Shown: positions 1 through 60,686, counted from the first letter of the stretch. The stretch is DNA of 64,000 bases from a bacterium (GCA_025774935.1 JALGZK010000017.1:3308-67307), one strand, 5' to 3'. A program made the numbers and translations. The notes: generated by a model from the sequence alone, not told the origin.

Positions 1-3000
1 GTCTCGCCCTCGCCGGTCGACTGGAGGAAGTCCCCGCTCACGAAGGGCTCCCCGTCGATGGTGACCTGCACCGTCGGCGGGCTCATCTCGACGTGCGTCA
101 TCGGGTCGCCGAGAAGAATGTACGTCCGGTCCTCGGTCGACGACCCCTGTTCCGTTATGACCTTGACGGTCCCCTTCGTGACCACGCCGCCCAGTGACCA
201 CCGGGGCCACGGGTTGTCCTCCGGCGAGCCCTCGGGCGTCGGGTCGAGGAAGAAGGCCTCGAAGACCTTCTCGTTGTAGGTCGCGTTCGGGCCGAGGTAC
301 GCGATGCTTGAGCAGGCGAAGGTGCCGATCGCGCCCTGCCCGCCCGGCCTGAAGAGCATCTGCTCCACGATGCAGTCGACGCTCGTTCCCTCGTGCGAGT
401 CGTAGAACCGCGACAGCTCGCAGGACCATCCGAGGAAGATGAACGGCCTGCCTACGTTGTTGAACCTTGAGATGTCGTTCGTTCCGGTCGTGGCCAGGAT
501 GAGCTGCTCGTGCGTCATCTGGGTCCTGTTCCCGTGGCCTTCGAAGTTCACGATGTTGGTCCCGTTCGAGATCTGGTCGAACATGACGGGCGTGGCGTTG
601 TCGCGCACGTAGTTCGCCGTTTCGAACGCGTAGATGAAGTCGCCGGACGTCGTTTCGCCGTGGAACGGGTCGGTGAACCTGTGAAGAAGGAAGTGCGTCG
701 TGTCGATGCCCGCCGGGTTCGCGTCGACCATCTCGCCCAGTTCGAGGCTCACGGTGGCGAAGCGATCCTCCGAGGTGTAGCGAACGTAGTTCGATCCGAT
801 CGACCGGTACGACCACGAGTCGTCAGCGAGGAAGTAGACGTCGTTCCTCCAGTAGTCGTCGGGCTCATAGTCCTCGTACTCGATGATCTTCTGAACGAGG
901 TTCTCCAGCTGGCTCTGGGGTCCGACCGGGAGCCGGCCGATCATCATCTGCGGGAGGAAGAGCGGTCCGTCGCCGAACGAGATGAACCACTGGTCGCTCG
1001 CCCTCAGCTTGGGTTCGCTCGCGGGCGATCTGATGAAGAGATACGTGGGCAGGTAGTCCGGAGTGCTCGAGTCGAGGGTCTGCTTGGTGTCCTCGTTCGC
1101 ATCACCGACGAGGAGGCACCACTGCGGCTGCCGGTCCCACTCGTCCATGGCGTACTCGAAGAGGTTGCGGATCGCCTCGTGCGAGGGCAGGCCTCCGTTG
1201 AACTCGTCGTAGACCTCCTGGAGCTTCGCGTGCGTCACCACGTGCCCCTGGGACTCACGGAACGCTACGAGAGGCTCCACCCCGTTGTGGTGGCCGTCGT
1301 ACGAGACGACGATGAGGTCGGCCTCCCTCGAGAAGAGGTTGGCGGGCTCGCGCCTCTCGATGTAGATCACCTCGAGCGCGCCGCCCGTCTCGACCGCCTC
1401 GTATCGGGCGAACCCCGAGACGTCCGTCTGGAAGACCAGCCGGTATCCGCCGCCTTGGGGCTCGACGTTCACGGCGTCAAGGGCGAACTCGAGCGGACTC
1501 CACGGATCGGTCACGTCGAAGAGACGTATAGCGTCGTCGTCGAATCCCCCGACTTCGAACTGGCTCAGGCCGGTCTCTCCCCCGCTCGTGCAGGCGAGGC
1601 GACCGTCGACCGTCCGGTAGCTGCGCAGGTAGTCGAACTCGAACCAGTCCAGGTTCGCGCCCGACCAGCCACCCGGGCCGTCCGAGCCCTCCGCGACGAG
1701 CGAGTTCGCGCCGTCGGTGAAGTAGGACGCCGGGATCGGGGACGTCGGGTTCGCGTAGACGTCCTCGTCCATCGAGTAGGAGATGCCGCTGAACTGGAAG
1801 TCGTCGACGTAGTTCGTGGTTCCCGTCCCGTCCTTGATCGAGAAGTCGACGCGGTGGGAGCCGGTCGTGATGCCCTGGTAGCGAGCCCTCAGATAGACCC
1901 CTCCGGACGGGTCGATGTCGTGGATCGAGAACGGCAGCTGGTACTCGTCGTCTTCGTCCCCGTAGAACGTCCAGTGATAGTAGTCGACCTCGTCGTTCGG
2001 GGGGGTCGAGTCGTAGTAGACGTCCTCCTCGAACCTGAGGGTGTCCCGGAAGCTCGCAGGCGGCACGAGGCCGGGCTCGTCGAGCCAGCCCGGCGTCGTC
2101 TCCATCCTGGTCGCGACCCCTTCGCCCCACCCGAACCAGTACACGTTCTCCGTCGTGTAGCGGTCTTCGTAGCCTTCGACCATGACGCCGTCGGCGAAGC
2201 TCAGCGCGTAGAAGTAGAGGTAGTCCGACCCGTCGAAGAGGTCGTTCTCGTTCTCGTCGACCACGACGATCGCCGTCGGTGTCTCGACGAACGGATCGAG
2301 CTCGGCAGGCTCGTACGTCCTTCGGTAGACGCCGATCTCGTCGACCGAGCGCGTGCCGTCGAGGCCCTCGGCCGCGAGGTCCGCGAAGCTCACGCGATAG
2401 AGCCCCGTCTCGCCGATCCAGAGCCGGTAGGCTTCCTCGTCGTCCCGCAGTTCGATCCTCATGTGGGCGCGGCGGGGCTCCGGACGGGCGCGCCACCGCT
2501 TCGCCTGGTCGTAGTTCAGGATCGTGCCGGAGTAGATGCCCTCCCACGCGGGTTCGTGCCGGACCTGGGGGATCATCTCACGCTCGAGCCCGCGAGGGCG
2601 GCCCCGCCAGCGGTCCGCCGCGCGGATCCTCACCCTAACGACGATCCTCGAGTGGAGCGCGAGCTGCCCGGTGCGCGGCGAGTAGTGGAACGGGCTCAGG
2701 AGGACCTGGACGACGCGCTGGTGCCGGAACGTCGACTGCGCACCGAGCTCTGCGGCGGCCGCCGGGTACGAGCCCCCGCGCGCGTAGAACTCCTCGTTCG
2801 GGAGGTACTCCTCGGTCGCGATCGAGAACTCCTCGTCGGAGACGATGCCCTCGACCGGGGCGGGCTCGATGCGATACGGGCCGAGGGCCTCGGTCTCGAG
2901 GGAGACGACCTCGAGGGAGAGCTCCGCCCCGAACGGGACGCCCAGAAGAACGCCCTTCCTCGGGAGCTTCGGGAGGCCGGGCTCCGTCGTCGAGCCGTAC

Positions 3001-3188
3001 AGCGGGACGCGGACCCGGTAATAGGACTCGCCACCGTGCACGACCTCCTCGAGCGAGTAGTCGTCGGTGGCGAGTTCTACGAGTATCTCGTCGTCTGACG
3101 TTTCGAGGACCCGCGGGCCGTTCGCCGCGAGCGCCGGCGCACAGAGCAGGAGCGCGATGACCGCCGCGGACAGACACTTCTGGAGCAT
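1..3188 (-). CDS. Secreted caspase-fold cysteine peptidase, C25 gingipain/PorU-like (partial; C-terminus beyond window start). Over 1060 aa visible
   Basis: Hand translation of minus strand: signal peptide MLQKCLSAAVIALLLCAPALAANG starting at ATG 3186-3188 with GGAGGGGAGAGGG RBS. Near window positions ~600 and ~430 the motifs IVNFEGHGNRTQM (His-Gly) and RPFIFLGWSCELSRF (Ser-Cys) match the catalytic His/Cys dyad arrangement of peptidase C25. Not in ORF track because the stop lies off-window. Confidence 0.55.
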   Translation of the reverse strand, partial: MLQKCLSAAVIALLLCAPALAANGPRVLETSDDEILVELATDDYSLEEVVHGGESYYRVRVPLYGSTTEPGLPKLPRKGVLLGVPFGAELSLEVVSLETEALGPYRIEPAPVEGIVSDEEFSIATEEYLPNEEFYARGGSYPAAAAELGAQSTFRHQRVVQVLLSPFHYSPRTGQLALHSRIVVRVRIRAADRWRGRPRGLEREMIPQVRHEPAWEGIYSGTILNYDQAKRWRARPEPRRAHMRIELRDDEEAYRLWIGETGLYRVSFADLAAEGLDGTRSVDEIGVYRRTYEPAELDPFVETPTAIVVVDENENDLFDGSDYLYFYALSFADGVMVEGYEDRYTTENVYWFGWGEGVATRMETTPGWLDEPGLVPPASFRDTLRFEEDVYYDSTPPNDEVDYYHWTFYGDEDDEYQLPFSIHDIDPSGGVYLRARYQGITTGSHRVDFSIKDGTGTTNYVDDFQFSGISYSMDEDVYANPTSPIPASYFTDGANSLVAEGSDGPGGWSGANLDWFEFDYLRSYRTVDGRLACTSGGETGLSQFEVGGFDDDAIRLFDVTDPWSPLEFALDAVNVEPQGGGYRLVFQTDVSGFARYEAVETGGALEVIYIERREPANLFSREADLIVVSYDGHHNGVEPLVAFRESQGHVVTHAKLQEVYDEFNGGLPSHEAIRNLFEYAMDEWDRQPQWCLLVGDANEDTKQTLDSSTPDYLPTYLFIRSPASEPKLRASDQWFISFGDGPLFLPQMMIGRLPVGPQSQLENLVQKIIEYEDYEPDDYWRNDVYFLADDSWSYRSIGSNYVRYTSEDRFATVSLELGEMVDANPAGIDTTHFLLHRFTDPFHGETTSGDFIYAFETANYVRDNATPVMFDQISNGTNIVNFEGHGNRTQMTHEQLILATTGTNDISRFNNVGRPFIFLGWSCELSRFYDSHEGTSVDCIVEQMLFRPGGQGAIGTFACSSIAYLGPNATYNEKVFEAFFLDPTPEGSPEDNPWPRWSLGGVVTKGTVKVITEQGSSTEDRTYILLGDPMTHVEMSPPTVQVTIDGEPFVSGDFLQSTGEGE

Positions 3189-3302: not shown

Positions 3303-4673
3303 CTAGTGCGCCACCCTCGGCGCGTACGTGGCGTAGTCGAACTCCGGGCTGTTCTCCTTGTCGTGACAGGCACTGCAGGTCGCAGCCGTCACGACGCCGT
3401 AGGATCCGTCGCGCGCGTGGTCGGTGCCGATCCCGTGACACGCCTCACACTGGACGCTGCGGAGGATCGTCGGCACGCCGACTGATCCATCCTGCGGGAG
3501 GTCGAGGTGGCACGTCACGTGGCAGCGGAGACACTCCGGATTCGTCGATTGGTGCGCTTCCTCCAAGGTCGCGAACGCGTTCGCGTGCGCGGTCTCCATC
3601 CACTGATCGTACTGCGGCAGGTGGCACCGCTTGCAGGAGTCGTTGACACCGACGCAGACCTCCACGTACGCCTGCCTCGCCTGCGCCTTCGCCTCCCTCT
3701 CCCTCGCCCTCGCTGCTGCCCGCTCCTTGCTCAGCTCCTCGACCGCGACCTTGTGCTCCTTGAGCGCGAGCGCCATGACCGCGTCCGACGGGACCGTGTC
3801 GATGAGGGCGACGGCCTTGCCCGTGTAGCCTTCGTAGACGCCGTCGGCGTCGAAGCTCAAGCGGAAGTCCGACATGTACTGACCCTTGTATCCGGGCTGC
3901 ACGAAGACGGCCCCGCTCACCTCGTAGGGATCCGCCGAGAACGCGCTGTGGTTCCCCACGACGACGAAGTCGATCCCGCCGATCTGCCCGGCGATGTCCT
4001 TCGCCCTGGCGAGGCCCGTGTGGCTCAGGAGGATCACGAGATCCGCCTTCGTCCTGAGCTCGGGCACGAGCTCATTGAGAACAGCGTAGGGATCCGCAAT
4101 GGTGACCCCGGACGATTCGACCTCGCGGTGGGTCCTGAGATCGATTGAGGGATCCAGGACCCCCACGACCGCGAGCGTCACCCCCGCCCGTTCCACGATC
4201 ACATAGGGTTCGACGACGAGTTCCCCGGTTGATTCATCGAGGACGTTCGCCGAGACGATGGGCACGCCGCTCTCGTCGAATCGAGCGTGGAAGTAGTCGA
4301 GACCCATGTATAGGTCGTAGGCCCCGATTGTCGTCGCCGCGTATCCGATCTCCGCCATGCCCCTCAGGTTCATCGCGTCGACCATCTCGCGGGCGAACTC
4401 GCGTCGGGTCAGGGAGCTTCCGCCGTCGACGATGAGTTGGAGAGGTACGTTCTGTTCAAGCTGGTTGATGTAGCCGGCCCTCCGGACCAGCCCGCCTTTC
4501 TGGCCCCCGTGTCAGCCACAGGGCTCGAGTTCTCCCCGCGTGTCGGTGGTCACGAGGAGCGCAATCTCGAAGGGACCTTCCGGCCGTTCCACGCGCTCGG
4601 TCGTAGCGCAGCCGGCCGCGACGAGGACCGCCAGCACCACGATGAGTCCCCAACGGTTGACCAAGGCCTTCAC
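3303..4673 (-). CDS. Lipoprotein: degenerate 5'-nucleotidase/metallophosphoesterase-like domain fused to C-terminal tetraheme c-type cytochrome. Reading frame interrupted by in-frame TGA at 4512-4514 (possible pseudogene, sequencing error, readthrough or Sec)
   Basis: ORF 3303..4385 carries 4 CxxCH motifs (CKRCH, CLRCH, CEACH, CSACH) after a UshA-like region (VILLSHTG, VVVGNHS). The same frame continues upstream through TGA to a GTG/TTG start (4673/4664) after GGAGG, encoding lipoprotein signal VKALVNRWGLIVVLAVLVAAGC. UshA-like homology (LLVTTDTRGELEP ... GGLVRRAGYINQLEQNVPLQLIVDGG ... MVDAMNLRGM) spans the stop. Metal-ligand motifs are degenerate (DxH to DTR, GNHE to GAYD). Confidence 0.55.
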
Positions 4674-4945: not shown

Positions 4946-5551
4946 CTACCGGTACAGGCTCTTGATCGAGCCCCACGTGGCATCCTCGACCGGCACCGGC
5001 GGGACGCAGTCGCCGTCCAGCGGGGGCATGCAGAGGCCGAAGTTACCGGCGTGGCCGTGCGAGTCGATCGACGCGACGCACCACTCGTCGAGCAGGTTCT
5101 GGCAGTCCGCGCCGACGGGGCCGTCAACGTCGTGCGCCAGAATCGTGATCGTGCCGGGCGTACCGAGGTACAGGTACGTGACCACCGCAGCGACCAGGAC
5201 GCCGTTGGCATCCGGGAACTGGCAGTTGGCGCCAGCCGTGATCGCCCAGCCGGGGGCGACTTCGACATCGCCGAAGTCCAGGCCACCGAGCAGGTTCGTC
5301 TGGGCGAGCTTGAAGCCGCCGAACGTACGGTCGAACTTGAAGGCAGCGCCGAGCATGCCGCCACCAACGCCGAACTGGTCGAAGCAGACGTAGACGTCGA
5401 CGGTCGCGTTCGGGGCCGGACAGACTTCGTTCACGACGTCGTTGCCGGTGTCCATGTCGGCGTCGAGGAAGATCGCCAGGTTCGGGTTATCATCGGCGAA
5501 AGCCGTCGCCGCGAAAGCCAGAACCATCACAACAATCATGAGCCTCTTCAC
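4946..5551 (-). CDS. Small secreted protein, paralog family 1 (A), C-terminal tail PVEDATWGSIKSLYR
   Basis: ORF 4946..5602. Probable GTG start 5549-5551 9 nt after GGAGG. Signal peptide MIVVMVLAFAATAFA-DD. Core LAQTNLLGGLDFGDVE shared with B, C, E. Confidence 0.8.
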   Translation of the reverse strand: MKRLMIVVMVLAFAATAFADDNPNLAIFLDADMDTGNDVVNEVCPAPNATVDVYVCFDQFGVGGGMLGAAFKFDRTFGGFKLAQTNLLGGLDFGDVEVAPGWAITAGANCQFPDANGVLVAAVVTYLYLGTPGTITILAHDVDGPVGADCQNLLDEWCVASIDSHGHAGNFGLCMPPLDGDCVPPVPVEDATWGSIKSLYR

Positions 5552-5928: not shown

Positions 5929-6534
5929 CTACCTGTAGAGGGCCTTGATCGTCCCCCAACTCCGGTCCTCGACCGGCACCGCGGGCACGCAGTCGCCGTC
6001 CGGAGGAGGCATGCAGACGCCGAAGTTGCCGGCGAATCCGTGCGAGTCGAGCGACGCGATGCACCAGTCATCCAGGAGGTTGTCGCAGTCCGCGCCGACG
6101 TGACCGTCGACGTCGTGCGCCAGGATCTGGACGATGCCGGGCGTGCCGAGATACAGGTACTGAACCGAGGCAGCCACCACGACGCCGTTGGCATCCGGGA
6201 ACTGGCAGTTGGCGCCGGCCGTGATCGCCCAACCGGGGGCGACTTCGACGTCGCCGAAGTCCAGACCGCCGAGGAGGTTCGTCTGGGCGAGCTTGAAGCC
6301 GGCGAACGTACGGTCGAACTTGAAGGCGGCGCCGAGCATCCCGCCGCCGCCACCGAACTGGTCGAAGCAGACGTAGACCATGATCGTCTCGTTCGGGTTC
6401 GGACAGACCTCGTTCACGACGTCGTTGCCCGTGTCCATGTCGGCATCGAGGAAAATCGCCAACTGCGGGTTCTGATCGGCGAGCGCCGTCACCGCCAGCA
6501 GCAATACGAGCAGAACTGTGACCAGCTGTCTCAC
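5929..6534 (-). CDS. Small secreted protein, paralog family 1 (B), tail PVEDRSWGTIKALYR
   Basis: ORF 5929..6612. Probable GTG start 6532-6534 9 nt after GGGAGGAG. Signal LVTVLLVLLLAVTALA-DQ. About 85% identical to A. Confidence 0.8.
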   Translation of the reverse strand: MRQLVTVLLVLLLAVTALADQNPQLAIFLDADMDTGNDVVNEVCPNPNETIMVYVCFDQFGGGGGMLGAAFKFDRTFAGFKLAQTNLLGGLDFGDVEVAPGWAITAGANCQFPDANGVVVAASVQYLYLGTPGIVQILAHDVDGHVGADCDNLLDDWCIASLDSHGFAGNFGVCMPPPDGDCVPAVPVEDRSWGTIKALYR

Positions 6535-6727: not shown

Positions 6728-7345
6728 TTACCGGTACAGAGACTTGATGGCACCCCAGGTCGCGTCCTCGACCGGGCTGATCGGCTCGCAGTCGCCCGAG
6801 GGCGGAGCCATGCAGACGCCGAAGTGGCCGTCAAACTGGTGCGAGACCGTCGACGGGACGCACCACGTGTCGAGGAGGTTGTCGCAGTCGGAGCCGACAG
6901 GACCGTCGACCGGGTGCGCGAGGATCGTGATGGTGCCGGGCACGCCGAGGTACAGGTACGACACCGACGCGGCAATCACGATGCCGGTGGCGTCCGGGAA
7001 CACGCAGTTCGCGCCGGCCGTGATGGCCCAGCCACCAGCCTCGACATCACCAAAGTCGAGTCCGCCGAGCAGGTTCGTCTGGGCGAGCTTGAACCCACCG
7101 AACGTGCGCTCGAACATGAAGGCAGCGCCGAGCATGCCGCCGCCAACTCCGTCGCCAGCCGGTCCGAACCTGTCAAAGCAGACGTAGACGTCAAACGCCG
7201 CGTTCGGAGGCGGGCAGATCTGCGTCACGGGCGCCGTACCCGTATCGTTGTCGGAGTCGAGGAAGATCGCGAGGTACGGGTTCTGGTCTGCGAGCGCCGG
7301 GAGGGCGAACGCGAGCACCAGGAGAACAATCAGCAACTTCTTCAT
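6728..7345 (-). CDS. Small secreted protein, paralog family 1 (C), tail SPVEDATWGAIKSLYR
   Basis: ORF 6728..7366. ATG 7343-7345 after GGAGGG. Signal MKKLLIVLLVLAFALPALA-DQ. Confidence 0.8.
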   Translation of the reverse strand: MKKLLIVLLVLAFALPALADQNPYLAIFLDSDNDTGTAPVTQICPPPNAAFDVYVCFDRFGPAGDGVGGGMLGAAFMFERTFGGFKLAQTNLLGGLDFGDVEAGGWAITAGANCVFPDATGIVIAASVSYLYLGVPGTITILAHPVDGPVGSDCDNLLDTWCVPSTVSHQFDGHFGVCMAPPSGDCEPISPVEDATWGAIKSLYR

Positions 7346-7543: not shown

Positions 7544-8116
7544 CTACGGAGCTGCGTGTCCGTAGTGAGCCGAGAACAGGATGAAGTCCTGCAGGCCGAT
7601 CGCACCGCCGCTCCAGTTGTAGTCGCTGCGGCCGACAACGAGGCCATAATCACCCGAGAACTCGATGAAGTCCTGGAGGTTCAGCCAGTTGTTGACATCC
7701 ACGAACAGATCGAACGTCTTGCAGTCCAGGTCGTCACTGTCGTTCAGAACGACCGTATAGATCTGCGCGCCGATCGTGACACCGGGCGTGGCAATGCTCT
7801 CGTCACCAACGACCGTGAAGCGGATCTCGCCATTAGCGTCGGTCTCCGCGTCCACGTTCGCAAACGTGACGTCGCCACCGGTCACCGTGAAGAAGAAGCT
7901 GTTGTACGGAATCCCCTCGATCGGGGTCGTGTCAGCCCTCTTCGCGGTAACAGTGATGTACTCGAAGGCCGGGCCATCGCCAGCAGGGCACGTCGTCATA
8001 CCGAGATCAGGACCGAGATCGCAAGTCGAGAGATCGGGGTCCGGGATTCCGGCGTTAGCGACGCCCGCCGCGAGGACCAGCAGTCCTGCGAGCACACCGG
8101 CAAGCGTTCTTGACAT
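7544..8116 (-). CDS. Secreted protein with two C-terminal tandem repeats (dockerin-like, N/D-x-W...LQDFI-F-S-x-x-YG); lacks the shared tail
   Basis: ORF with GGAGG RBS, signal MSRTLAGVLAGLLVLAAGVANA. Repeats DVNNWLNLQDFIEFSGDYG and SDYNWSGGAIGLQDFILFSAHYG. Confidence 0.65.
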   Translation of the reverse strand: MSRTLAGVLAGLLVLAAGVANAGIPDPDLSTCDLGPDLGMTTCPAGDGPAFEYITVTAKRADTTPIEGIPYNSFFFTVTGGDVTFANVDAETDANGEIRFTVVGDESIATPGVTIGAQIYTVVLNDSDDLDCKTFDLFVDVNNWLNLQDFIEFSGDYGLVVGRSDYNWSGGAIGLQDFILFSAHYGHAAP

Positions 8117-8597: not shown

Positions 8598-9155
8598 CTA
8601 CCTATACAGACCCTTGATCCCGCTCCAGGTTGAAGCCTCGACCGGGCTCGAGGGCGCGTCGGTGCCCACGCCGAAGTTACTGAAGACGGTGGCCGTGTCG
8701 AGCAGGTTGTCGCAGTCGGAGATCACGAGCCCGTCGACGGGATGCTCCACGATCGTGATGGTGCCGGGCGTCCCCAGGTACAGGTACTGCACAGTCGCTA
8801 GCATCAGGTATCCGTTGGCATCCGGGAACTGGCACTCGGCCCCGGCCGTGATCGCCCAGCCGCCGGCCTCAACGTCGCCGAAGTCCAGGCCCGGAAGGAG
8901 ATTCGTCTGGGCCAGCTTGAACCCGCCGAACGTACGCTCGAACAGGAACGCTGCGCCGAGCGCTCCCCCGCCCGGTCCGAAGTTCTTCGCGACGACGTAC
9001 ACGTCGATCGTTCCGTTCGGAGCCGGATCGAGCCTGTTGTTCTCAGGCGGCGGCGGGTTGTTCGAGTCGCACCCGATCATGATGTTCGGGTTCTCGTCCG
9101 CCATCGCCGCGGTCGCGATGAACGCGACCAGCACTGCAGCCACCATGAACCTCAT
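8598..9155 (-). CDS. Small secreted protein, paralog family 1 (E, more divergent), tail SPVEASTWSGIKGLYR
   Basis: ATG at 9155 after GGAGGGAGGG. Signal MRFMVAAVLVAFIATAAMA-DE. Conserved core ERTFGGFKLAQTNLLPGLDFGDVEAGGWAITAGAECQFPDANG. Confidence 0.8.
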   Translation of the reverse strand: MRFMVAAVLVAFIATAAMADENPNIMIGCDSNNPPPPENNRLDPAPNGTIDVYVVAKNFGPGGGALGAAFLFERTFGGFKLAQTNLLPGLDFGDVEAGGWAITAGAECQFPDANGYLMLATVQYLYLGTPGTITIVEHPVDGLVISDCDNLLDTATVFSNFGVGTDAPSSPVEASTWSGIKGLYR

Positions 9156-59122: not shown

Positions 59123-59647
59123 ATGAAGAAGCTGCTAATTGCTATTGCGATCCTCGCCATCGCGGCCCCGGCCATGGCTCGCGAGATCGAGGGCGCGTTC
59201 GTGGATCTGGTCGACCCGGCGGCGAATGAGCTCATCCCCGGTGCGACCATGACCCTGAAGTTCATCGTCCAGAACGATTCGAGTGACGCCGAATGGCTCA
59301 CCGACGTTCACATCGCGTTCCCCGACGGGTTCGTCCTCCACGAGAGCACGATGGCCTACGACATGATCGTGGCCGGCCGGCCGAGCTGGGACCAGTATGT
59401 CCCGCCGGTTGACCACACGGCCATCTGGGAGGACAACAACGGTGGCTGGGGCGAGGTCTACAGCACCGAGTTCACGCACGTCTACATCGACGTGACGATC
59501 CCCGACCAGCTCTACGGCTGCATCTACTGGTCGCTGTGGGGAGACGAGTACGGCGACGAGCCCCACTGGGTCTGCGGCTGCATCGACGTCGGCTTCAGCC
59601 CGGTCGAGGATGCGACGTGGGGTGCGATCAAGGCGATGTACAGGTAG
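59123..59647 (+). CDS. Small secreted protein, paralog family 2 (F), tail SPVEDATWGAIKAMYR
   Basis: GGAGG RBS, signal MKKLLIAIAILAIAAPAMA-RE. Mature domain unrelated to family 1 but same C-terminal 15 residues. Confidence 0.8.
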   Translation: MKKLLIAIAILAIAAPAMAREIEGAFVDLVDPAANELIPGATMTLKFIVQNDSSDAEWLTDVHIAFPDGFVLHESTMAYDMIVAGRPSWDQYVPPVDHTAIWEDNNGGWGEVYSTEFTHVYIDVTIPDQLYGCIYWSLWGDEYGDEPHWVCGCIDVGFSPVEDATWGAIKAMYR

Positions 59648-60164: not shown

Positions 60165-60686
60165 ATGAAGGTCCTGATGGTAGCGATCACGATTCTGGCG
60201 CTCACGTTCGCCGCCGGCGCGCGTGAGATCGACGGCGCGTACGTGTCCCTGACGTCGCCCGCGCCGCTCGACATCGTCCCGGCGACGGTGATGACGTTCA
60301 TCTTCTGGGTCCAGAACGACTCAGGCGACGCGGAGTGGCTCAGCAACATCCATATCACGTTCCCCGACGGCTTCAATCTCGTGGAGGGCTCGATGGGATT
60401 CGCCGAGATCGCCACAGGCCGACCCAGCTTCGACATGACCGTCAGCGGACAGACGGCTCAGTGGGACGACAACGACGGCGGCTACGGCGAGATCTACAGC
60501 ACCGAGGGCACGGAGGTGTGGGTCGACGCGTTCGTCCCGGGCTGCTACGAGTGCGGCGAGCTCTACTGGGAACTCTGGGGTGACGTCTGGGGCGCGGAGC
60601 CTCACTACGTCGACGGGGTCATCGACCTCTGCCCCTCGCCCGTCGAGGAGTCGACTTGGGGATCCATCAAGGCGCTCTACAGGTAG
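60165..60686 (+). CDS. Small secreted protein, paralog family 2 (G), tail SPVEESTWGSIKALYR
   Basis: ATG 60165 after GAAGGAGG. Signal MKVLMVAITILALTFAAGA-RE. About 50% identical to F. Confidence 0.8.
   Translation: MKVLMVAITILALTFAAGAREIDGAYVSLTSPAPLDIVPATVMTFIFWVQNDSGDAEWLSNIHITFPDGFNLVEGSMGFAEIATGRPSFDMTVSGQTAQWDDNDGGYGEIYSTEGTEVWVDAFVPGCYECGELYWELWGDVWGAEPHYVDGVIDLCPSPVEESTWGSIKALYR

Follow-up and report, generated by a model that had tools for sequence, protein, structure and literature searches.

The stretch of bacterial DNA analysed here (GCA_025774935.1 JALGZK010000017.1:3308-67307, 64,000 nucleotides, ~67% G+C, referred to in its full length as the window) opens with a minus-strand gene for a secreted cysteine peptidase of family C25, which resembles PorU, the C-terminal signal peptidase and sortase of the T9SS (type IX secretion system), and which is preceded on the same strand by an array of four paralogous genes whose products end in a common short tail. 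Judged from sequence comparisons, the peptidase is a member of a phylum-wide, deeply diverged PorU-like subfamily that has tail proteins as its one constant genomic companion. Peptidases of the C25/PorU kind are known as such; what is new is a PorU-type sortase subfamily that appears to be coupled to a short and previously undescribed C-terminal tail. The original prediction had proposed the peptidase as partner of the array on the strength of their adjacency, a local coincidence that is now raised to a phylum-wide conserved association, and the partnership is thereby strengthened: its support comes from comparative genomics, with same-strand tail genes upstream of peptidases down to ~24-28% identity.

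The subfamily was delimited by full-length collinear similarity exceeding that to canonical PorU, together with one or more upstream, same-strand genes that end in the tail. The window peptidase, with four such genes upstream, fits this working definition, and all 110 subfamily loci described below scored higher with subfamily queries than with canonical PorU. When 1.84 billion cluster representatives were searched exhaustively by HMMER with the peptidase as query, 11,135 relatives were obtained at E ≤ 1e-3, of which 1,413 at E ≤ 1e-30. The best 150 of the 11,135 are mostly ~1240-1450 residues long, collinear with the query along all or the greater part of their length (245-1291 bits) and 27-35% identical to it, save for a few closer or truncated entries. 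Public names of subfamily members are "C25 family cysteine peptidase" and "Gingipain domain-containing protein", with Eiseniibacteriota as the source, and Candidatus Eiseniibacteriota is listed as a candidate phylum in the NCBI taxonomy; the subfamily therefore spans at least this phylum, under generic public annotation only. A literature search returned no paper describing either the PorU-like subfamily or the tail.

The arrangement of array and peptidase recurs in 10 further loci of the window type, with peptidases of 46-58% identity, in which the order is ileS-dksA-lspA-rluD/ruvX-mltG, the tail array with one dockerin-like protein, a small open reading frame (ORF) and a cytochrome gene, the peptidase, and glcE/F-like genes. 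Taken alone, this order among close orthologs could be inherited synteny. At 35% identity (locus L125), the peptidase is preceded by a dockerin-like protein, a single tail protein (AVELTTWGAIKGLYR) and a PpiD/SurA-like rotamase, and followed by unrelated genes; at 31% identity (L126), two tail proteins lie directly upstream and ClpB downstream; and at 28% identity (L127), the upstream genes encode a dockerin-like protein and five paralogs whose tails are degenerate (TWGKVKSLYSK, SWGKVKALYN and others), and the downstream genes belong to sugar metabolism. A degenerate DNA pattern around the catalytic histidine, which covers only ~17 of 27 subfamily representatives, retrieved 120 metagenomic loci, 110 with a subfamily gene and 10 false. 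Within the 110 loci (with 244 kb available upstream and 339 kb downstream), 52 tail-like gene ends were found upstream on the strand of the peptidase and 2 elsewhere, while the upstream same-strand region makes up less than a quarter of the searchable sequence. Where at least 5.5 kb of upstream sequence was available, a tail gene was present in 11 of 13 loci. One to six tail genes precede subfamily genes, and the association reaches peptidases down to ~24% identity. Many of the 110 loci are interrelated, so these counts are not independent.

In a soil clade (P0214-type, labelled Eisenbacteria), the array is found 3.3-9.4 kb upstream of the peptidase, behind two or three genes on the opposite strand. 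The tail differs by lineage (PVE..WGxIKALYR; P[TV]R..WGQVKSLYR; NED.TWGxVKSLY(K); ATE..TWxGVKxLF.), with a persisting but variable W-G-x-[IV]-K-x-L-Y core, and the bodies of the upstream proteins fall into at least six BLAST families; a hidden Markov model (HMM) of the window array family built without the tail misses some of them. The relaxed tail pattern used here is short, and a length filter confined its matches to the ends of ORFs of 100-290 residues. With bodies diverged and neighbours replaced, it is the tail, rather than any protein family or neighbour, that is the constant companion of the PorU-like gene, and this amounts to good comparative evidence for, but not proof of, a functional link between peptidase and tail. 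As for the rotamase (Pfam Rotamase_2), in L125 it is the immediate upstream neighbour of the PorU-like gene (L125:8548-9945); an ORF that looks homologous, assigned by appearance only, ends 122 nt upstream of the peptidase in L160, and the opposite-strand ORFs of the soil clade (480-620 residues; L209, L227 and L159) have C-termini that resemble a rotamase, again by appearance. This rotamase may be a dedicated periplasmic chaperone.

The tail is 15 residues long, with the consensus [STV]PVExx[TS]WGxIKxLYR-COOH. In the window it closes the four array paralogs, proteins of ~190-205 residues that end in PVE(D/A)x(T/S)W(G/S)xIKxLYR and a stop codon, and that are encoded on the minus strand at 4946..5551 (start approximate; ending in PVPVEDATWGSIKSLYR), 5929..6534 (AVPVEDRSWGTIKALYR), 6728..7345 (ISPVEDATWGAIKSLYR) and 8598..9155 (SSPVEASTWSGIKGLYR). 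It also closes a secreted protein encoded on the plus strand at 59123..59647 (SPVEDATWGAIKAMYR), and a paralog of that protein on the same strand at 60165..60686 (SPVEESTWGSIKALYR); since the bodies of these two look unlike the array family, the tail is best seen as a portable module. The tail is not restricted to the adjoining paralogs, being present on many families scattered over related genomes. A degenerate DNA pattern for the tail plus stop codon, applied to contigs of one genome per species, gave at least 116 sites, nearly all of them in metagenome-assembled genomes (MAGs) of Candidatus Eisenbacteria and many per genome. A few MAGs with tails are labelled as Latescibacterota, Krumholzibacteriia or Gemmatimonadota. 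In 871 kb of DNA, the core was followed at once by a stop codon in 152 of 157 occurrences, lay within four residues of the stop in another 4, and was internal in 1; the possibility that the tail is a linker ahead of a larger C-terminal domain (CTD) was rejected on this account. Conservation among 163 unique tails (subscripted here as per cent) follows [STV]-P94-V98-E94-x-x-[TS]95-W-G83-x-I96-K-[ASG]-L96-Y97-R100, where W and K carry no figure because the search pattern required them.

A signal-peptide-like N-terminus is present on 102 of the 127 complete tail carriers (~80%), which belong to many unrelated families of 170-450 residues, some of them enzyme-like; no Pfam or NCBIfam model matched any tail-bearing protein scanned. 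Tail and CTD alternate within families, namely a beta-helix/PMP-repeat family and the array domain itself, which in L067 is fused to a CTD protein of 971 residues (L067:419-3334). CTD-bearing examples are, besides the latter, L020:5160-6935 and L072:2-2113, and L034:2554-3780 is an example of a tail-bearing member of the same families. Such a 'choice of anchor' suggests that the tail and the FlgD_ig/type-A-like CTD are alternative signals. An AlphaFold2 (AF2) model of the third array paralog (6728..7345) has a mean predicted local distance difference test (pLDDT) of 92.4, with the tail as a helix (residues 191-204) at pLDDT ~60; a helix of this kind on a well-folded domain fits a flexible recognition peptide or an anchor alike. 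The residue before PVE is S, T or N in ~70% of the 163 tails, and two positions further upstream G is commonest (24%). In P. gingivalis, PorU favours Gly/Ser/Ala at P1 and Ser/Thr/Asn/Asp at P1' (PMC5445135), a preference to which the residues around PVE show a weak fit.

Short C-terminal sorting signals with dedicated peptidases are known from several systems, i.e. LPXTG/sortase, PEP-CTERM/exosortase and GlyGly-CTERM/rhombosortase. Like these signals and the CTD of the T9SS, the tail is a short signature at the very C-terminal end of many secreted proteins that are not related to one another, with a 'choice of anchor' between two signals and a candidate processing peptidase encoded beside some of the clients. 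Unlike LPXTG, PEP-CTERM and GlyGly-CTERM, it has no transmembrane helix or basic stop-transfer cluster, and unlike the T9SS CTD, an Ig domain of 80 residues, it measures 15 residues and is predicted to be helical. By its sequence properties it would appear to be a signal for sorting or anchoring that has not been described. Two further types of locus with tail proteins were observed in passing. At a second recurrent Eisenbacteria locus (L006, L023, L039, L042, L056, L081, L100 and L109), a tail family of ~410 residues (motif TTDNGCGPG...DD; no Pfam match in the one member scanned, L006:232-1500) has downstream of it one or two CTD-bearing C25 proteases of the gingipain type (~1140 residues), an independent association of C25 and tail. 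At three loci, small tail proteins ending in NPVEAKSWGSIKALYR occur near a weakly FadL-like barrel of ~390 residues (Toluene_X, E 6e-4; ending in VGYEF; L026:4810-5961 and L117:584-1783) and, in related loci, a TonB-dependent receptor (L118:1066-3768).

The peptidase gene occupies 3..3188 on the minus strand as a single ORF, which starts with ATG at 3188, preceded by a purine-rich, Shine-Dalgarno-like stretch (GGAGGGGAGAGGG), and is open at the left window edge, so that codons 1-1062 of 1249 are visible. Its G+C content at third codon positions (0.92) is the value expected of a real gene in a genome of 67% G+C. A protein of 1249 residues in a public collection (P0001) is 100% identical to the visible 1062 residues, which places the last 187 residues, including the C-terminal domain, outside the window. 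The claim of more than 1060 residues with a signal peptide is borne out by the 1062 codons and a Sec signal peptide read from the sequence (residues 1-21, 3126..3188; MLQKCLSAAVIALLLCAPALA-ANG, i.e. APALA-ANG with an AxA site), the helix of which (residues 2-20) has a low pLDDT. A gingipain-type prodomain follows at residues 27-187 (2628..3110; Pfam Propeptide_C25, E 8.5e-17, 61 bits), which matches the prodomain of Kgp (5MUN) in a PDB sequence search and, in Foldseek, the prodomains of RgpB and Kgp with template modelling (TM) scores of 0.76-0.80; it presumably acts as a latency module. Residues 251-625 (1314..2438) are predicted to form PorU-type N-terminal beta-sandwich domains, according to the alignment with the NCBIfam PorU model NF033707, Foldseek and an all-beta structure at pLDDT ~90. 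The regions ahead of the catalytic dyad had been described as long and without obvious similarity, which does not hold for residues 27-187 (Propeptide_C25) or residues 251-625 (PorU model).

The catalytic, caspase-fold domain (Peptidase_C25) comprises residues 626-1032 (93..1313; PF01364, E 4.6e-60), with 204.3 bits against a cutoff of 23 and coverage of profile positions 2-373 of 374. The assignment as a secreted caspase-fold C25 peptidase therefore stands, the full-length protein also keeping the C25 domain in a profile search. The predicted catalytic histidine is His885 (CAC, 534..536), in the sequence FEGHGN with GHG at residues 884-886, which aligns with the GHG of P. gingivalis PorU, and the predicted catalytic cysteine is Cys923 (TGC, 420..422), in GWSCEL with SC at residues 922-923, which aligns with the cysteine of the TATCDF stretch of PorU. 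The dyad had been expected ~830-900 residues in; this is correct for His885, while Cys923 falls slightly beyond residue 900. Alignments of 49 and 27 relatives show no substitution of either residue, nor of the GR pair (G751/R752) of the IGRLPV motif that the peptidase has in common with PorU. The AF2 model of the visible 1062 residues has a pLDDT of 88.6 and a predicted TM score of 0.89. Beyond the window edge, the 3' part of the gene encodes Ig-like domains and a putative FlgD_ig/T9SS-type-A-like CTD: precomputed Pfam annotation places a FlgD_ig domain at the C-terminus of P0001, and the CTD model TIGR04183 gives 21.2 bits against a cutoff of 23 in a region that also aligns with the CTD of PorU. 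Profile match, conserved dyad and predicted fold all agree in assigning the peptidase to the caspase-fold C25 family.

Within this family it is PorU that the peptidase resembles most. Among solved structures P. gingivalis PorU is the best match both by sequence (6ZA2, E 2.4e-14, collinear in the catalytic domain and CTD) and by predicted fold (6ZA2_B, E 5.6e-25, 908 aligned columns in Foldseek), in agreement with the PorU-like architecture originally proposed; the catalytic domains of RgpB and Kgp reach E ~1e-14 and target TM scores of 0.58-0.65 over ~435-460 columns. On the PorU profile the outcome for the full-length protein is divided: positions 5-742 of NF033707 align to residues 251-1043, whereas the score of P0001 (258.4 bits) is below the equivalog cutoff of 420, which makes the protein PorU-like, not a demonstrated PorU. 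Seven of the best 150 relatives score 177-293 bits, again below 420. For comparison, the canonical PorUs P0052 (PorV gene directly downstream), P0055 (PorP/SprF neighbours) and P0051 obtain 990, 1357 and 538 bits, respectively, and the gingipain-type C25 paralogs that related MAGs encode separately, in the classical Rgp/Kgp layout (prodomain abutting the catalytic domain, C25_C Ig domain, CTD), obtain 27-80 bits. Used as queries against the sampled Eiseniibacteriota DNA, canonical PorUs find this peptidase family as their best match, nearly end to end. The peptidase is thus PorU-like in predicted fold, architecture and relative similarity, yet belongs to a distinct, diverged branch.

With PorU (PG0026, PDB 6ZA2, NF033707), the T9SS C-terminal signal peptidase/sortase, it shares the C25 family and conserved His/Cys dyad, a succession of modules that runs from N-terminal beta-domains through the catalytic domain and Ig-like domains to a putative type-A-like CTD of its own, and an IGRLPV-type motif, and with 'long-form' PorUs the extra N-terminal domain, P0052 having a weak Propeptide_C25 match. 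It differs from PorU in its identity of 14-17%, in its score below the equivalog cutoff, and in that no porV adjoins it, the genes for proteins with the 15-residue tail preceding it instead. In P. gingivalis, porU and porV are 75 bp apart (PMC5445135), and the two are adjacent in the canonical-PorU locus L119 as well. With the gingipains RgpB and Kgp (PDB 1CVR, 4IEF, 4RBM, 5MUN) the peptidase shares the caspase-like catalytic fold, the N-terminal prodomain and the T9SS-type CTD, but ~440 residues of PorU-type domains separate its prodomain (27-187) from its catalytic domain (626-1032), and a Pfam scan found no Peptidase_C25_C Ig domain (PF03785). The NCBIfam pair PorU2/PorV2 (NF052324, NF052325; a putative second T9SS sortase pair) provides a precedent for paralogous PorU-like sortases with partners of their own. 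Similarity to that pair is weak (105-106 bits for the peptidase on PorU2, 96 bits for the Eiseniibacteriota PorV-like protein described below), far under the cutoffs of 450 and 325, and the peptidase is therefore not of that family.

The locus was originally said to lie outside a recognisable T9SS context. For the window this is correct, as no other T9SS component was recognised among the translations read by eye (9.6-64 kb); Sov/SprA and PorK/L/M/N were seen neither there nor, by Pfam, among ten outer-membrane or large proteins of related loci, which were DUF5916/CBM9 proteins, a TonB-dependent receptor plug, a weakly FadL-like barrel, peptidases and other unrelated proteins. PorV-, PorQ- and PorP-like genes were not found in any of the 110 subfamily loci. 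For the related MAGs it is not correct. Two of these Eisenbacteria genomes encode a PorV/PorQ-family outer-membrane protein of 303 residues, on the minus strand (L065:439-1350 and L044:2316-3311), which obtains 206 bits on NF033709 (cutoff 90), is about equidistant from PorV, PorQ and PorV2, and lies below all three equivalog cutoffs. One of them, MAG CSMAG_2124, holds both the PorV/PorQ-family gene (L044) and an ortholog of the peptidase (L018). Tblastn with the PorV, PorP/SprF and FGE-sulfatase proteins of L119 and L120 returned only the PorV/PorQ-family genes in L044 and L065, and similarity confined to CTDs. By eye, the neighbours of the PorV/PorQ-family gene encode a CAAX-type protease, LemA, an HtpX-like protease and a metallophosphoesterase, and no T9SS genes were seen among them. 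CTD-like ends occur in ~28 other Eiseniibacteriota loci, several of them passing the TIGR04183 cutoff, and gingipain-like C25 cargo is also encoded in related MAGs. With the CTD of the peptidase itself, the CTD cargo and the PorV/PorQ-family barrel, all recognised by sequence similarity, Eiseniibacteriota are not free of T9SS-type parts. The T9SS may exist in several phyla of the Fibrobacterota-Chlorobiota-Bacteroidota (FCB) superphylum besides Bacteroidota (PMC11285876), and no paper linking it to Eiseniibacteriota was found in the literature search.

The array protein that was modelled has a predicted fold resembling cohesin. For this third paralog, a predicted cohesin-like beta-sandwich with a C-terminal helix (AF2, Foldseek), the best fold matches are cohesin modules (E ~2e-3, probability 1.0, TM ~0.6), and the array includes, at 7544..8116 on the minus strand, a secreted protein in which an Ig-like domain is combined with a C-terminus that is dockerin-like and duplicated. 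A duplicated-dockerin-like protein is present in each array examined in detail with enough upstream sequence (the window, L001, L002, L125 and L127). No Pfam Cohesin match was obtained for the array protein, and for the L002 homologue of the 7544..8116 protein the Dockerin_1 match is no better than E 0.074; with Pfam scores under threshold, these assignments denote resemblance only. The array is thus like the cohesin-dockerin display of cellulosome scaffoldins in its nearest fold and in having a dockerin-like member, but unlike it in the E-value of only ~2e-3, the missing Cohesin match, the sub-threshold Dockerin_1 and the host, presumably a diderm from a candidate phylum. Array and dockerin-like protein may together form a cohesin-dockerin-like surface scaffold. 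An interpretation of the array proteins as type V pilin-like was also considered and found unsupported, given their cohesin-like fold and a tail that is helical and common to unrelated families.

The reading favoured here, which is given about an even chance of being correct, is that the peptidase is a PorU-type, sortase-like C-terminal signal peptidase with the tail proteins among its clients; it may also process FlgD_ig-type CTD proteins. P. gingivalis PorU is a surface peptidase that retains its own CTD, is anchored via PorV and transfers cargo to anionic lipopolysaccharide (A-LPS) (PMC5445135), transpeptidation to A-LPS and removal of the C-terminal signal both having been described for it (PMC5445135, PMC4560394). 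By analogy, the peptidase would be exported in a form that its prodomain keeps latent, reach the cell surface via its own CTD and be held there, perhaps on a PorV/PorQ-family barrel encoded elsewhere in the genome, where it would cut the C-terminal signal off its clients and possibly transfer the new C-terminus to a surface glycolipid. The adjoining cohesin-like tail proteins would be its dedicated and abundant clients, and may form a surface scaffold for the dockerin-like protein of the array.

Several observations weigh against this. The many CTD proteins in the same genomes are an obvious alternative class of substrates. The tail genes are numerous and scattered (at least 116 genome matches, and two more in the window itself at a distance of 56 kb), so that most clients would be unlinked to the peptidase, and the amphipathic tail helix, modelled with low confidence, could be an uncleaved membrane or partner-binding anchor. 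The NCBIfam PorU score is below its cutoff, and no porV is adjacent in the 110 loci. No tail was detected by pattern in L177, L178, L210, L150, L237 and L168, despite 4.7-7 kb of upstream sequence. Finally, the window clade and, to some extent, L125 and L127 also have the upstream housekeeping block (to ileS-dksA-lspA-rluD-ruvX-mltG) in synteny, and part of the conservation of array and peptidase may therefore be inherited gene order.

The main alternative is considered rather unlikely: the peptidase would be the Eiseniibacteriota ortholog of canonical PorU and remove only the ~80-residue FlgD_ig/type-A CTDs, while the tail would be an uncleaved anchor or docking helix read by something else, and the array would adjoin the peptidase by inherited order, as co-regulated envelope genes or as clients of other machinery. 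The PorU-like architecture with its own CTD is in line with this, as are the CTD-like segments in ~28 loci, the PorV/PorQ-family protein in CSMAG_2124 (which has a peptidase ortholog), the place of this family as the best match of canonical PorU in the sampled Eiseniibacteriota DNA, and the co-conservation of the housekeeping block in several lineages. However, in every lineage other genes have come to stand downstream of and directly next to the peptidase, yet the position and strand of the array are unchanged; porU-porV adjacency is found in 0 of 110 loci; the score of the peptidase is far under the equivalog cutoff; and the conservation of the tail greatly exceeds that of the protein bodies, which points to recognition by a specific partner. 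It could also be that the adjacency statistics are an artefact of chance pattern matches or of the sampling of related contigs, since many of the 110 loci are related, their counts non-independent, and the relaxed pattern is short. This is very improbable, as the upstream same-strand region takes in all but 2 of the 54 matches, the matches end ORFs of 100-290 residues with signal-peptide-like N-termini on the inspected examples, and the association recurs across lineages of 52-71% G+C and at least six protein families.

Rgp cleaves type V pilins, whose C-terminal segments take part in contacts between subunits, and the peptidase could be no sorting enzyme but a gingipain-like protease, either a secreted degradative effector or a maturation protease that trims the beta-sandwich proteins of the array for polymerisation. 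Its C25 family, gingipain-type prodomain and CTD typical of T9SS cargo, next to small proteins that are Ig-like or cohesin-like and end in a conserved segment, are what would be expected in that case. This is nevertheless improbable: the true gingipain-type paralogs differ in layout and obtain only 27-80 bits on the PorU model, the peptidase carries 440 residues of PorU-specific N-terminal domains, and the tail, which is predicted to be helical and to provide no donor strand, is found on many unrelated enzyme-like families beyond pilin-like proteins. The favoured reading, of a PorU-type signal peptidase with tail proteins among its clients, can be extended to a joint proposal, offered tentatively as a possibility somewhat on the doubtful side: the tail would be a new class of sorting signal, doing with 15 residues what the CTD does with 80; it would have the PorU-like subfamily as dedicated signal peptidase/sortase, without an adjacent PorV; and the oldest clients would be cohesin-like proteins that build a display scaffold with a dockerin-like partner in Eiseniibacteriota.

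Directly upstream of the peptidase, at 3303..4673 on the minus strand, the window encodes a lipoprotein in which a UshA-like selenoprotein is fused to a cytochrome c554-like multihaem domain. An in-frame TGA (4512-4514, selenocysteine) follows EPCG (ELEPCG-TGA-HGGQKGG), and the read-through product, with U replaced by C, obtains 290 bits on NF041198 (cutoff 275). Gene callers split this gene in related contigs into ORFs of 51 and ~350-380 residues; a hairpin lies 3' of the TGA. The neighbour is not conserved in distant lineages, a Rotamase_2 gene taking its place in L125. On the far side of the array (9.6-58 kb, read by eye), MltG, LspA, DksA and IleRS are followed by a long run of acyl-CoA, propionate and electron-transfer genes. 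From 13203 to 58080, housekeeping and catabolic genes follow one another in the same direction in a long run, none of them secretion-related by eye, which includes IleRS, purine nucleoside phosphorylase, acyl-CoA dehydrogenases, biotin carboxylases and carboxyltransferases, as well as two methylmalonyl-CoA-mutase-like genes, electron transfer flavoprotein, Hdr/Nuo-like iron-sulfur proteins and a sulfatase.

PorU has been studied almost only in Bacteroidota, where it acts on a folded domain of 80 residues. It is the only sortase-like enzyme described for the Gram-negative surface (PMC5445135). Read conservatively, a PorU candidate together with a PorV/PorQ-family protein and abundant CTD cargo would be evidence of T9SS-type sorting in a candidate phylum for which no report of it was found. 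If the peptidase does process the tail, one more bacterial protein-sorting signal would be added to those known, and PorU-type sortases would be able to evolve new signal specificities. The secreted and surface proteome of Eiseniibacteriota, a phylum common in soils and sediments, would then become predictable from sequence by a simple handle.

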